Below, in pieces: positions 27,779-43,923 of a DNA stretch of 64,000 nt. The notes below the pieces were generated by a model. It saw only the letters and a program-made list of their open reading frames with translations. It ran no database searches and was not told where the DNA came from. A program made the translations under genes and the position numbers. Positions within the stretch are counted from its first letter, which is position 1; each line of letters begins with the position of its first letter. The stretch is from Escherichia coli (GTDB lineage Bacteria > Pseudomonadota > Gammaproteobacteria > Enterobacterales > Enterobacteriaceae). The stretch lies in the NCBI RefSeq assembly GCF_048403405.1, contig NZ_CP183129.1; one strand, 5' to 3'.

Positions 27779-29074
<1,296 letters not shown>

Positions 29075-36045: not shown

Positions 36046-36318
36046 ATGAATCTTGATGACATTATCAACAGCATGACGCTTGAGGTATACCAGCGTTTGT
36101 CGACCGCCGTTGAATTGGGCAAATGGCCTGATGGCGTTGCGTTGACCGAGGAACAAAAAGAGAACTGCCTGCAACTGGTGATGCTGTGGCAAGCCCGCAA
36201 TAATACCGAAGCACAGCATATGACAATTGACACAAATGGTCAGATGGTCATGAAGAGCAAACAACAGTTAAAAGAAGATTTTGGTATCTCAGCAAAGGCT
36301 ATTGCCATGTTTAAGTAA
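36046..36318 (+). CDS. yeaC: DUF1315 family protein
   Basis: Start taken at MNLDDIINSMTLEVYQRL… (90 aa). Confidence 0.85.
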   Translation: MNLDDIINSMTLEVYQRLSTAVELGKWPDGVALTEEQKENCLQLVMLWQARNNTEAQHMTIDTNGQMVMKSKQQLKEDFGISAKAIAMFK

Positions 36319-36533
36319 GTGGTTTGTCCCCTTTTTGCCGCGGTTATAAAGGGGATAGCCAACAATAACCCCACGACTCATCTCAATTATCTCGTCACGA
36401 CCAGGCTAAGTCCCAGCCCGGTCTCTTGCAGTCGCGTTCACGCCTGAATGACTTCTCCTGAACTTAAGTCTCAGACCTATTTGGCCGGTAATCCCTCTCA
36501 AATTTGCTCATTTTGCGTTCCGCCTTCCATCAA

Positions 36534-36612
36534 CCTGTAACAGATCCAGCCATTTTCTGCGTAATTGTGATCTGAGTTGTAAAACGCAGATCATTATCTG
36601 TGTTTTACAGAT
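36534..36612. promoter_or_regulatory. array of ATCTG/CAGAT inverted half-sites upstream of ydjL (candidate operator)
   Basis: CAGATC at 36541, GATCTG-N12-CAGATC at 36570-36593, CAGAT-N4-ATCTG at 36587-36600, ATCTG-N7-CAGAT at 36596-36612; ends about 75 bp before the ydjL start. Confidence 0.4.
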
Positions 36613-36687
36613 TTAATGTTGACCTCAAAAATCATGTGGGTAAGTATGATGACCATCTAAGCAAAACAAAACACAGAGGATGACGCA

Positions 36688-37764
36688 ATGAAAGCACTGG
36701 CTCGGTTTGGCAAAGCCTTTGGCGGCTACAAGATGATCGATGTCCCACAACCCATTTGTGGCCCGGAAGATGTAGTGATTGAAATTAAAGCCGCGGCAAT
36801 CTGCGGCGCAGACATGAAGCACTACAATGTCGATAGCGGTTCTGATGAGTTTAACTCTATCCGCGGCCATGAGTTCGCAGGTTGTATTGCGCAGGTTGGT
36901 GAAAAAGTCAAAGACTGGAAAGTGGGGCAACGCGTCGTGTCGGATAACAGCGGTCACGTCTGCGGCGTTTGTCCGGCCTGTGAACAAGGTGATTTTCTGT
37001 GTTGTACAGAAAAAGTAAACCTTGGTCTGGATAACAATACCTGGGGCGGTGGTTTTTCCAAATATTGTCTGGTTCCTGGTGAAATTCTCAAAATTCATCG
37101 TCATGCATTGTGGGAAATCCCTGATGGTGTTGATTATGAGGACGCAGCCATACTTGACCCTATCTGTAATGCCTATAAATCCATCGCGCAGCAATCGAAA
37201 TTCCTCCCTGGTCAGGATGTGGTCGTCATCGGCACTGGCCCACTCGGGCTGTTCTCCGTACAAATGGCGCGGATTATGGGGGCGGTAAATATCGTCGTCG
37301 TTGGTCTACAAGAAGATGTGGCGGTCCGCTTCCCGGTTGCAAAAGAACTGGGTGCGACGGCAGTAGTAAATGGTTCTACCGAAGATGTGGTGGCGCGCTG
37401 CCAGCAAATTTGTGGCAAAGACAATCTGGGACTGGTGATTGAATGCTCCGGTGCCAATATCGCACTGAAACAAGCCATCGAAATGCTCCGTCCGAACGGG
37501 GAAGTGGTACGCGTTGGAATGGGCTTCAAACCTCTTGATTTCTCGATTAATGACATTACCGCCTGGAACAAAAGCATCATTGGGCATATGGCCTATGACT
37601 CCACCTCATGGCGTAACGCTCTCCGGCTATTAGCCAGCGGCGCTATCAAAGTCAAACCGATGATCACGCATCGTATCGGCCTGTCGCAATGGCGCGAAGG
37701 GTTTGATGCGATGGTCGATAAAACCGCAATCAAAGTGATCATGACTTACGACTTTGATGAATAA
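36688..37764 (+). CDS. ydjL: zinc-dependent alcohol/polyol dehydrogenase (MDR family)
   Basis: 358-aa ORF; zinc ligands GHEFAGCIAQVG and structural-zinc cysteines CGVCPACEQGDFLCC. Confidence 0.9.
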   Translation: MKALARFGKAFGGYKMIDVPQPICGPEDVVIEIKAAAICGADMKHYNVDSGSDEFNSIRGHEFAGCIAQVGEKVKDWKVGQRVVSDNSGHVCGVCPACEQGDFLCCTEKVNLGLDNNTWGGGFSKYCLVPGEILKIHRHALWEIPDGVDYEDAAILDPICNAYKSIAQQSKFLPGQDVVVIGTGPLGLFSVQMARIMGAVNIVVVGLQEDVAVRFPVAKELGATAVVNGSTEDVVARCQQICGKDNLGLVIECSGANIALKQAIEMLRPNGEVVRVGMGFKPLDFSINDITAWNKSIIGHMAYDSTSWRNALRLLASGAIKVKPMITHRIGLSQWREGFDAMVDKTAIKVIMTYDFDE

Positions 37765-40250: not shown

Positions 40251-41087
40251 ATGCTCGCAGATATCAGATATTGGGAAAACGATGCCACAAATAAACATTA
40301 TGCAATTGCCCATTTTAACGTATGGAATGCAGAAATGTTGATGGGCGTTATCGACGCAGCCGAAGAAGCGAAATCACCGGTTATTATTTCTTTTGGTACA
40401 GGTTTTGTCGGGAACACCTCATTTGAAGATTTCTCTCACATGATGGTATCAATGGCAAAAAAAGCAACGGTGCCGGTAATAACTCATTGGGATCATGGTC
40501 GGAGTATGGAAATTATTCATAACGCCTGGACTCATGGTATGAATTCATTAATGCGTGATGCTTCCGCATTTGATTTCGAAGAAAATATTCGTTTAACCAA
40601 AGAGGCTGTTGATTTCTTCCATCCGCTGGGTATTCCGGTAGAGGCAGAATTAGGGCATGTCGGTAATGAAACCGTTTATGAAGAAGCGCTGGCGGGCTAT
40701 CACTATACCGATCCTGACCAGGCGGCTGAATTTGTTGAACGTACGGGCTGTGACTCATTGGCTGTCGCCATCGGCAACCAACATGGGGTTTATACGTCAG
40801 AGCCACAATTGAATTTTGAGGTCGTCAAACGCGTACGCGATGCCGTTTCTGTTCCGCTGGTTTTGCACGGCGCATCGGGGATCAGTGATACCGACATTAA
40901 AACTGCAATTTCGTTGGGTATCGCGAAAATCAACATTCATACGGAGCTCTGTCAGGCCGCAATGGTAGCAGTGAAAGAAAACCAGGATCAGCCTTTCCTG
41001 CATTTAGAACGTGAAGTACGTAAAGCTGTAAAAGAACGGGCATTGGAAAAAATTAAACTGTTCGGTTCTGATGGCAAAGCGGAATAA
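40251..41087 (+). CDS. ydjI: class II (metal-dependent) ketose-bisphosphate aldolase
   Basis: 278-aa ORF, FbaA/KbaY-like (…HWDHGRSM…, …LHGASGISD…). Confidence 0.9.
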   Translation: MLADIRYWENDATNKHYAIAHFNVWNAEMLMGVIDAAEEAKSPVIISFGTGFVGNTSFEDFSHMMVSMAKKATVPVITHWDHGRSMEIIHNAWTHGMNSLMRDASAFDFEENIRLTKEAVDFFHPLGIPVEAELGHVGNETVYEEALAGYHYTDPDQAAEFVERTGCDSLAVAIGNQHGVYTSEPQLNFEVVKRVRDAVSVPLVLHGASGISDTDIKTAISLGIAKINIHTELCQAAMVAVKENQDQPFLHLEREVRKAVKERALEKIKLFGSDGKAE

Positions 41088-43029: not shown

Positions 43030-43054
43030 ATACTCAACACGATTCACCTCTGTT

Positions 43055-43083
43055 TCTGTGAAAACTGTGATGAAAATCTGTGA
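43055..43083 (+). promoter_or_regulatory. three direct CTGTGA repeats upstream of ydjF (candidate autoregulatory operator)
   Basis: CTGTGA at 43056, 43065 and 43078; shares the ATCTGTG core with the ydjL-upstream array. Confidence 0.3.
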
Positions 43084-43165
43084 TTCAAACAGGTTATTTT
43101 GAAAGTAAACATCGGTTATGCGATAATCGCGCTAATGTGATGTAAAAAGATACAGGGGTGTAATC

Positions 43166-43923
43166 GTGGCGGCAAAAGACAGGATTCAGGCAATTAAGCA
43201 AATGGTTGCCAACGATAAAAAGGTGACAGTCTCAAATTTGAGTGGGATTTTTCAGGTAACCGAAGAAACCATTCGCCGCGATCTCGAGAAGCTGGAAGAT
43301 GAAGGCTTTTTGACCAGAACCTATGGTGGTGCTGTTTTAAATACAGCGATGTTGACGGAGAATATCCATTTTTATAAGCGCGCTTCATCGTTTTATGAAG
43401 AGAAGCAGCTTATTGCACGCAAGGCACTACCCTTTATCGACAATAAAACCACTATGGCAGCCGATTCCAGTAGTACCGTTATGGAATTGCTCAAATTGTT
43501 GCAGGACCGTAGTGACCTGACGTTGCTAACTAACTCGGCGGAAGCGATTCATGTTCTGGCTCAATCAGAAATTAAAGTCGTTTCAACGGGGGGGAACTAA
43601 ACAAAAATACACTTTCCCTGCAAGGAAGAATTACTAAAGAGATCATCAGCCGCTACCATGTCGATATCATGGTAATGAGTTGTAAAGGTCTTGATATTAA
43701 CAGCGGCGCGCTGGACTCTAACGAAGCGGAAGCTGAAATCAAAAAGACAATGATCCGTCAGGCGACAGAGGTTGCGTTATTGGTTGATCACTCTAAGTTT
43801 GATCGCAAAGCTTTTGTCCAGTTAGCTGACTTTAGTCATATTAATTACATAATAACTGATAAATCACCGGGTGCAGAGTGGATAGCATTTTGCAAAGACA
43901 ATAATATCCAGCTGGTGTGGTAA
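43166..43923 (+). pseudogene. ydjF: DeoR-family transcriptional regulator, interrupted by a frameshift in this sequence
   Basis: GTG at 43166 encodes the HTH N-terminus and stops after …VVSTGGN at 43600; the next frame continues ELNKNTLSLQGRITKEIISRYHVDIMVMSCKG… to 43923; break lies in the G7 run 43588-43594; the two parts total 252 codons. Confidence 0.85.

Follow-up and report, generated by a model that had tools for sequence, protein, structure and literature searches.

Directly upstream of ydjL in the ydj gene cluster of Escherichia coli we found a dense and conserved array of palindromic sites. It lies in the window analysed here, a stretch of 64,000 nt (64 kb) of contig NZ_CP183129.1. 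We propose that this array is a DNA operator of YdjF, a regulator encoded in the same cluster, which would repress the operon through phased promoter sites and a DNA loop between the principal site (O1) and a copy inside ydjL (Oint). Judging from the sequence, we give this reading a probability of about 0.6; within it, we infer the identity of the binding protein (YdjF), repression and not activation as its mode of action, the looping and the nature of the inducer. The ydjLKJIHG operon is among the remaining catabolic clusters of E. coli with uncharacterised regulation. Its promoter was described as a validated 'healthy gut' trigger, which stays off in culture and is turned on in mice and whose control is unknown according to the authors (PMC6561318). 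Such silence in culture and activity in the gut is expected of a repressed, substrate-inducible operon.

The initial annotation of this DNA had pointed to five ATCTG/CAGAT half-sites in 80 bp before ydjL, and this count was confirmed. CAGAT is found without mismatch at 36541, 36587 and 36608, as is ATCTG at 36570 and 36596, and the orientations alternate. Together they span 36541-36612, which is 76-147 bp upstream of the ATG, and this is the sole 80-bp window with five half-sites in the 64 kb. When 64 kb were simulated 300 times with a first-order Markov model, the maximum of five was reached once (~0.3%) and at least four half-sites were reached 12 times. The three palindromes described earlier also have the spacings given for them, namely GATCTG(36569-74)-N12-CAGATC(36587-92), CAGAT-N4-ATCTG (36587-36600) and ATCTG-N7-CAGAT (36596-36612), while the hexamer TTGACC, placed at 36620, is in fact located at 36619-36624. 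It had been overlooked that in E. coli the inner palindrome widens to 14-nt arms (TGTAAAACGCAGAT/ATCTGTGTTTTACA, 36578-36609). This longer palindrome overlaps two more inverted repeats, and in one of them the Shine-Dalgarno region is the pairing partner.

Our comparative set comprised 58 loci with YdjL relatives, and the upstream regions of 26 Enterobacterales (genera Escherichia, Citrobacter, Klebsiella, Raoultella, Yokenella, Intestinirhabdus, Budvicia, Symbiopectobacterium, Enterobacillus and Serratia) were aligned. From a sharp boundary at 36561/2 the sequences are conserved as far as the start codon, whereas further upstream they are unalignable. The conserved block (36561-36650) includes four of the five half-sites; invariant or nearly invariant are TGTGA at 36566-70, C36572, parts of CAGAT, the ATCT and AGAT of 36596-36612, the TTGA of the -35 hexamer and the A/T positions of the -10 hexamer AAGTAT. 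The repeats are thus kept in orthologous ydjL upstream regions; their absence there would, by the initial annotation, have refuted the operator. The half-site at 36541, which had been counted as a member of the array, is located outside the block, and K-12 as well as four other E. coli strains sampled have CAGAC in its place; therefore we consider it a chance, lineage-specific match. In our collection of 5426 complete E. coli genomes, the block is present in 4327, and its 89 bp (36562-36650) are at least 95% identical in 4320 of these. In the flank of equal length (36440-36528), identity is down to 90-95% for 1595 of 4205 genomes. Since the block was found exactly once per genome in all 4327 genomes having it, a dispersed repeat (repetitive extragenic palindrome, miniature inverted-repeat transposable element or terminal repeat of an insertion sequence) was ruled out.

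The strongest site in the block is the predicted operator O1, which scores 13/14 against ATCTGTG-N3-CACAGAT and is unique in the 64 kb. It holds half-sites 4 and 5 and follows the pattern ATCTGTG-N3-yACAGAT across species; in Serratia sp. H1w and Enterobacillus it is the perfect palindrome AAATCTGTGTTTCACAGATTT, with 9-bp arms and 21 bp overall. Its ATCTGTG is unbroken in every sampled E. coli variant. At arm position 5/13 a double change from G:C to T:A recurs, and the number of three pairs changed on both sides was reached by 7 of 500 shuffles. We propose that the recognised unit would be a 15-17-bp palindrome, (A)TCTGTG-N3-CACAGA(T). Of the half-site anatomy suggested initially, the 5-bp word as a recognised unit would thus be given up, while its four copies within the block stand.

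Copies of the longer unit form a phased chain that is unique in the window, with steps of 20-21 bp or about two helical turns, starting at 36555 (8/14), 36575 (10/14), 36596 (13/14) and 36616 (8/14). The flanking site O(-1), whose right arm is half-site 3 (CAGAT 36587-91, with a GATC at 36589), is kept as GTTGTGAAATGCAGAT in most Enterobacterales. Two of the palindromes named earlier are probably better read in terms of this chain, with CAGAT-N4-ATCTG as the junction of two adjacent phased sites and ATCTG-N7-CAGAT as O1 itself. In the distal box, TGTGA and C36572 are invariant in the 26 sequences (columns T9, G10, T11, G12, A13 and C15 of alignment A1), and the last base of its ATCTG varies (G/A/T) between and within species. 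This box may be either a distal YdjF contact or a half-site of another factor such as CRP.

The sites are followed by the predicted sigma-70 promoter of ydjL, with a start near 36654 and thus a 5' untranslated region (5'-UTR) of ~34 nt. In the -35 hexamer TTGA is invariant and C36623 is found in 25 of the 26 sequences; in the -10 hexamer T36647 is invariant. The -10 hexamer reads AATTAT or GATAAT in distant species, which backs the promoter assignment. The ATCTG of O1 begins 23 bp before the -35 (36596 to 36619). The earlier view of a multi-site operator overlapping the promoter is supported in so far as the sites adjoin the conserved -35 and -10, but the strong sites are located upstream of the -35 and only a weak 8/14 copy overlaps it. 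An alternative promoter, TTTACA-17-AAAAAT, was rejected because its -35 is specific for E. coli whereas TTGAC is invariant, and a promoter-like match on the minus strand was rejected because in E. coli there is no gene for it to transcribe.

The second exact TCTGT-N5-ACAGA, missed in the initial annotation, is found inside ydjL: in the 64 kb this pattern is present just at 36597 and 36996 (36996-37010). The core of this candidate operator Oint, TCTGTGTTgTACAGA, agrees with the O1 core at 14/15 positions. Its centre lies 399 bp downstream of that of O1, and the spacing is 397-401 bp across Enterobacterales. In 24 Enterobacterales loci, the only cluster-linked recurrent matches of at least 9/10 are at -91 (O1) and +308 (Oint) from the ATG, and Oint is present in all 24; another 9/10 match recurs 1.7-3.4 kb upstream, within conserved genes before the cluster. 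Oint encodes DFLCCTEK, and the third-codon-position entropy at this place is 0.206 bits, the lowest of 351 ydjL windows (mean 0.994, next 0.529). As judged by this synonymous-site constraint, the putative operator copy is under nucleotide-level selection within the ydjL coding sequence, and its natural explanation would be an auxiliary operator for a repression loop. In the ydjL genes of Firmicutes and Atopobiaceae, Oint was found not to be conserved. Oint would be a clear case of a regulatory motif constraining coding sequence, which matters for analyses of codon-level evolution and for recoding projects.

Another 17-mer within ydjL, ATCTGCGGCGCAGACAT at 36799-36815 (+119, 11/14), was rejected as an operator. 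This match recurs at +119 of ydjL in all phyla, including the loci L023-L037, where the sequence codes for AICGAD, a conserved zinc-site motif of the dehydrogenase. Its resemblance to the operator is thus due to coding, and motif scans should be wary of such matches.

The promoter of ydjF has the same architecture as that of ydjL. The ATCTG at 43076 begins exactly 23 bp before the -35, an offset identical to that of O1 at ydjL, and at least three ATCTGTG-like half-sites (at least 6/7) per 60 bp are present only in the ydjL and ydjF promoter regions of the 64 kb. The TTCTGTG (43054) and ATCTGTG (43076) boxes are conserved across Enterobacterales. The presence of a putative YdjF box at its own promoter implies autoregulation, as far as the sequence can tell. 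YdjF is annotated in RefSeq as a DeoR/GlpR-family regulator, and the intact K-12 protein matches the Pfam domains HTH_DeoR (5.4e-17) and DeoRC (3.2e-49). At the sequence level, the locus would thus have the features of a DeoR/GlpR-type system, namely the domains of the regulator, candidate operators by the promoter, multiple sites, and a box at the promoter of the regulator. In line with the earlier remark that no characterised operator was known here, our literature search revealed none for YdjF or ydjL, neither a YdjF site nor any transcription factor site at ydjL; RegulonDB and RegPrecise were outside that search. With the hexamers and spacing given in Table 1, the ydjF promoter was listed as a constitutive RpoD promoter in genomic SELEX (systematic evolution of ligands by exponential enrichment), and ydjL is not in that list (PMC3946193).

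In the window, a 1-bp deletion near 43588 breaks ydjF into two open reading frames (ORFs), of 144 aa and 84 aa. A G run is G7 here and G8 in the closest strain CFSAN061763, and K-12 reads GGGTGGTG at this place. The identical 61-mer of ydjF was found in just 1 of the 5426 complete E. coli genomes (strain B1.H1.39, NZ_CP146556.1). The frameshift may be a homopolymer sequencing error, or the strain may be a natural derepressed (regulator-null) one. The recognition helix of YdjF, VTEETIRRDLEKLE, was considered as a clue to specificity and rejected. It is nearly invariant across phyla, and as ETIRRDL is a motif common to the whole DeoR family, it does not tell specificities apart.

Two further observations concern sequences between a promoter and its start codon. 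Directly before the start codons of both ydjL (36668-36683) and ydjF (43148-43160) we noticed AAACA(C)AGAGG, which overlaps the Shine-Dalgarno sequence and is the reverse complement of an operator arm (TCTGTGTTT); it could be an extra half-site or a mere coincidence at the ribosome-binding site. Between the -10 of ydjF and the start codon, a degenerate LexA site, CCCTGTATCTTTTTACATCA (43138-43157, minus strand), is reported to underlie a LexA signal assigned to 'ydjF,ydjK' in ChIP-chip (chromatin immunoprecipitation with microarray readout; PMC3542263).

Complete ydj clusters are also present outside Enterobacterales, among them those of gut Firmicutes, in Lachnospiraceae, Eubacteriaceae, Enterococcus, Anaerococcus, Megamonas and a metagenome-assembled genome of Atopobiaceae, with YdjL 76-84% identical to that of E. 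coli. This identity is well over our expectation for vertical descent and implies an inter-phylum transfer of the whole cluster with its regulator. A YdjF homologue (42-55% identity) is encoded in every complete ydj locus of Enterobacterales, Firmicutes and Atopobiaceae. The gene order in the loci L022-L045 (Firmicutes, Atopobiaceae, Megamonas) is ydjL-(extra gene)-ydjK-J-I-H-G-F.

Just before the operon -35 in Firmicutes and Atopobiaceae, related 17-mers are arranged in tandem with 20-21-bp phasing, and a degenerate copy lies over the -35. A reading of the sequences by hand places the start of the proximal copy 24 bp ahead of the -35 in L023, L024, L035, L036 and L037. For example, the tandem copies are ATCTTGCAAACACAGAA, TTCTGTGAAACACAGAA and ATCTTGTAAACAGAAAT in L036, the last one overlapping the -35, and ATCTTTGAAACAGAAAA and ATCTGCGAAACAGACAA in L024; the -35-overlapping copy in L023 is ATGTTGAAAATAAAAGA. 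A scan of 247 kb of non-enterobacterial loci for phased pairs (20-22 bp apart) found ten pairs. Five of them fall into the region just upstream of the operon, which makes up 2% of the sequence (p = 7e-7), and a sixth one lies upstream of ydjF. A de novo motif search by expectation maximisation (EM) in 21 promoters, with the seed ATCTGTGAAAC, fell to poly-T because the Firmicutes regions are AT-rich, and was discarded; counting of 7-mers fared likewise. A 21-bp position weight matrix built from enterobacterial O1 sequences was overfitted to the T-rich centre; even so, the ydjF box came 7th and the CAGATC of the minus strand 10th in its ranking of the window.

Based on these comparisons, we tentatively suggest that a promoter-operator module, consisting of the palindrome, ~21-bp phasing and a -35 offset of 23-24 bp, may have been kept through a transfer between Firmicutes/Actinobacteria and Enterobacterales. 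Enterobacterales may then have added Oint as a loop anchor maintained by selection on synonymous codons and, as host-specific input, the TGTGATC box, which could be a CRP half-site or a Dam-sensitive site. If this is true, a compact cis-regulatory module would be both portable and locally rewired, and it would provide the control logic of the gut-responsive ydjL 'biosensor' promoter.

Table 1. Features of the ydjL and ydjF control regions, given in positions of the window
Feature	Position	Strand	Description
Half-site 1, CAGAT	36541-36545		outside the conserved block; not part of the element
Distal box, TGTGATCTG	36566-36574	+	includes half-site 2 (ATCTG 36570-74) and GATC 36569-72
Flanking site O(-1), AGTTGTAAAACGCAGAT	36575-36591		10/14 to ATCTGTG-N3-CACAGAT; 21 bp upstream of O1
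Principal operator O1 (predicted), ATCTGTGTTTTACAGAT	36596-36612		17-bp palindrome ATCTGTG-N3-TACAGAT; centre 36604; ~-50 from the predicted start
Weak phased copy, ATGTTGACCTCAAAAAT	36616-36632		8/14; over the -35 hexamer
ydjL sigma-70 promoter (predicted)	36619-36647	+	-35 TTGACC 36619-24, 17-bp spacer, -10 AAGTAT 36642-47
ydjL	36688-37764	+	ATG at 36688
Oint, candidate intragenic auxiliary operator, TTTTCTGTGTTGTACAGAAAA	36993-37013		8-bp arms, N5; ydjL codons 102-109; centre 37003
Boxes upstream of ydjF	43054-43092	+	TTCTGTG 43054; AACTGTG 43063, E. coli only; ATCTGTGATTCAAACAG 43076-43092, 11/14
ydjF promoter	43099-43127	+	TTGAAA 43099-104, 17-bp spacer, GATAAT 43122-27
ydjF	43166-43923	+	DeoR/GlpR-family regulator, presumed trans factor; frameshifted in the window

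We suggest the following mechanism. An oligomer of YdjF would bind O1 and its phased neighbours cooperatively and would bridge O1 and Oint, thereby enclosing the ydjL promoter in a repression loop. The weak site overlapping the -35 would be occupied too, and the ydjL promoter would be kept off. An intermediate of the pathway would free YdjF; by analogy to other repressors of the DeoR family it is probably a phosphorylated sugar acid, and binding to the box at the ydjF promoter would lead to autoregulation. A DeoR-family repressor with several operators and a loop would be a conventional mechanism.

Several points weigh against this view. The enrichment of single sites across phyla is modest (2-fold, p = 0.001), and in an nhmmer search with the enterobacterial block against 17 non-enterobacterial loci the matches were individually weak (E = 0.17-8); 8-9 of the 13 weak matches precede the operon or ydjF at a distance of up to 300 bp, which we treat as supportive only. 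The right arms of the ydjF boxes are poor (11/14 at best). The unit can equally be read as direct YTGTG repeats instead of palindromes, and the enterobacterial sequences are kin by descent, so that their conservation does not amount to many independent observations. In principle, it could be at the level of RNA that Oint is constrained. The start of ydjL is a predicted one, and the only start used in the literature is further upstream, inside yeaC. The strong sites, at ~-50 and -71, are upstream of the core contacts of RNA polymerase, a position that also suits an activator, and with its weak -10 (AAGTAT) and its absence from the list of constitutive promoters ydjL might need activation. Finally, YdjF is still listed as an uncharacterised DeoR-family transcription factor (PMC4797297).

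Activation through the same sites is unlikely in our view; here YdjF or another local factor, at a site centred near -50 with helper sites upstream, would recruit RNA polymerase to the promoter with its weak -10 in the presence of the inducer. Activators are known in the DeoR family, for example FucR. Neither O1 nor O(-1) covers the core promoter, both being located upstream of the -35, the -10 hexamer matches at just 3/6 positions, and ydjF but not ydjL is among the promoters bound by RNA polymerase alone. However, the -35 TTGACC is near consensus and the 17-bp spacing is ideal. Further, the same box is present at the same distance before the ydjF promoter, which RNA polymerase binds unaided, weak copies lie over the -35 in several phyla, and the conserved copy 399 bp downstream within the gene is a hallmark of repression loops and not of activation.

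It is quite unlikely that a protein other than YdjF binds part or all of the array, in such a way that the distal TGTGATCT is a CRP half-site (class I, ~-82) which brings the operon under catabolite control, and the ATCTG repeats are partly incidental. TGTGA at 36566-70 is the most invariant element of the block, the left half TTTGTGATCTA fits the left half of the CRP consensus, with a centre ~82 bp before the predicted start, and the distal box is without a counterpart in the Firmicutes promoters. Moreover, ydjF is a target of CRP in genomic SELEX, and its upstream region has similar TGTGA boxes; ydjL, however, is not among the listed targets (PMC3105977). The right half of the site is poor as well (TTGTA/TTGTG versus TCACA). 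When compared to the CRP pattern TGTGA-N6-TCACA, positions 36566-36581 read TGTGA-TCTGAG-TTGTA, a 7/10 match, and with 217 such matches in the window versus 227 expected, this is chance frequency. Binding of CRP would also leave unexplained O1, Oint, the common 23-bp spacing and the phased copies in bacteria without CRP.

Very unlikely, and to be regarded as an added layer upon the YdjF operator and not as an alternative to it, is control by Dam, in which the GATC sites at 36569 and 36589 would make the operator sensitive to methylation, and Dam and the binding protein would compete for them, leading to heritable ON/OFF heterogeneity as in pap or agn43. Two GATC are located in conserved sites and a third one just outside, at 36543. 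Inspected by eye, the 26 sequences have the GATC of the TGTGATCT box except in Budvicia, and most of them have that of CAGATC, while the corresponding Firmicutes sequences, from hosts which we assume to be without Dam, have no GATC. On the other hand, GATC belongs to words of the ATCTG/CAGATC type and may be incidental, the strongest site O1 is without it, and a literature search found nothing that links ydjL to unmethylated GATC.

At the level of RNA, transcripts coming from inside yeaC could adopt hairpins that exclude one another (36568-78/36583-93; 36578-91/36596-609; 36591-606 paired to the Shine-Dalgarno region at 36668-83) and form an attenuator or translational switch, perhaps coupled to termination by Rho. 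The array does contain three overlapping inverted repeats, the middle one flagged as terminator-like, and Adams et al. cloned a ydjL '5' UTR' from 36211 and found expression increased more than 2-fold in a rho mutant, indicating Rho-dependent attenuation. Nevertheless, we consider such a switch highly improbable. A search of Rfam with E values up to 1 gave nothing, shuffled sequences fold equally well (z = -0.65), and RNAalifold found 0 consensus pairs in 26 species. The 14-bp hairpin is without covariation (one double-change pair, reached by 463 of 500 shuffles), and its length is specific for Escherichia, with four mismatches at the DNA level outside this genus. Features of an intrinsic terminator were not found either, as 4 of the 15 pairs in the stem are G-C and the T run is poor. 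The conserved block starts ~16 nt before the hairpin and the promoter lies downstream of it, so that a conserved transcript covering the palindromes is not evident, and the upstream gene differs in other genera. In view of the negative RNA tests and of the positions of the promoter and the block start, we treat the array as a DNA element.

Binding sites of three other regulators were rejected by their geometry or conservation. O1 and Oint have CTG-N7-CAG instead of the CTG-N10-CAG of a LexA (SOS) box. A Fur box was considered for AGATCATTATC (~13/19 by hand count), and its central N4 varies among species (ATTA, ATAA, AATA, AAAA). TyrR boxes (TGTAAA...TTTACA) have N6 spacing, versus N20 here.

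The model of YdjF as a repressor acting at O1, its neighbours, Oint and the ydjF box makes the regulator, the inducer and the gut signal directly testable. Defined operator bases would also enable synthetic biologists to tune the ydjL promoter.

Concerning the locus as a whole, the genes on the plus strand are msrB, yeaC (ending at 36318), a 369-bp spacer, ydjL, ydjK, ydjJ, ydjI, ydjH, ydjG, ydjF and ydjE. The spacer is 94.5% identical to that of K-12 MG1655. It is without a match in 1093 of the 5426 complete genomes (~20%), and at least one strain, KTa005, keeps only its first 119 nt; thus, the ydj cluster appears to be accessory within the species. The gene neighbouring ydjL upstream differs in other genera. 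In Citrobacter youngae (L008, 7451-8731) a 426-aa glycosyl-hydrolase-18 (GH18, chitinase)-like protein and a small HNH-like ORF are encoded between yeaC and ydjL; these genes are divergent from ydjL and have equivalents in Citrobacter, Klebsiella and Raoultella loci. The conserved operator block goes with ydjL and not with this insertion. Directly after the yeaC stop codon, at 36327-36355, there is an inverted repeat, TCCCCTTT...AAAGGGGA, with a terminator-like stem and no T-run.

The forward primer of Adams et al., GCACAGCATATGACAATTGAC, corresponds to 36211-36231 of the window, inside yeaC and 477 nt before the ydjL ATG. By our own coordinate conversion, their Rho-termination region (K-12 1861188) is at ~36832, ~144 nt into ydjL. 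According to these positions, read-through transcripts cross the array and Rho stops them before the intragenic palindrome.

Elsewhere in the window, the cluster of CAGAT/ATCTG words that comes second in density (28652-28710, with CAGAT three times and ATCTG once in ~60 bp) falls within a minus-strand ORF of 427 aa (27779-29062), which we take to be yeaH, and is probably coding-driven. A predicted GalR site, GGGAAAACGATGCCAC, is found at 40273-40288, 22 nt inside ydjI, in a paper that reports no regulation for it (PMC5110547).

When compared to known systems, the ydjL upstream region resembles CRP class I sites in its invariant TGTGA, the A/T-rich left flank and the distance of ~82 bp to the predicted start of a sugar-catabolic operon; it differs in that there is practically no second half-site, the match as a whole does not exceed chance and ydjL is not in the CRP SELEX list (PMC3105977). 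A member of the DeoR family itself, GlpR, has four operators (O1-O4) at glpFK, a promoter that is also CRP-dependent (PMC2753651). In both systems a DeoR-family repressor, as proposed for YdjF, would control a sugar or polyol catabolic operon from several adjacent operators in the promoter region. The half-sites differ in sequence, that of GlpR being ~TGTTCGWT, and at ydjL only one strong palindrome is flanked by weak copies. Yang and Larson are said to have described in 1996 auxiliary GlpR operators inside the glpD structural gene which act at a distance, and these would parallel the phased sites and Oint of ydj.

The looping logic proposed for O1 and Oint, 399 bp apart, is like that of DeoR, the founding member of the family, at deo, where 16-bp palindromes form three separated operators and repression relies on DNA looping. 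In contrast to ydj, with its main site at ~-50, the partner in the coding sequence and the TCTGTG motif, the deo operators lie over the -10 of two promoters and have an unrelated motif, of the TGTTAGAA type. In the lac operon, O2 is located within lacZ, 401 bp downstream of O1. The regulators belong to different families (LacI/GalR versus DeoR), and lac O1 lies over the transcription start whereas ydj O1 is upstream of the -35. However, in both cases a promoter operator, a predicted one at ydj, has a near-copy ~400 bp downstream in the first structural gene, so that an operator has to be preserved within coding sequence, and in ydjL the entropy minimum falls exactly on this copy.

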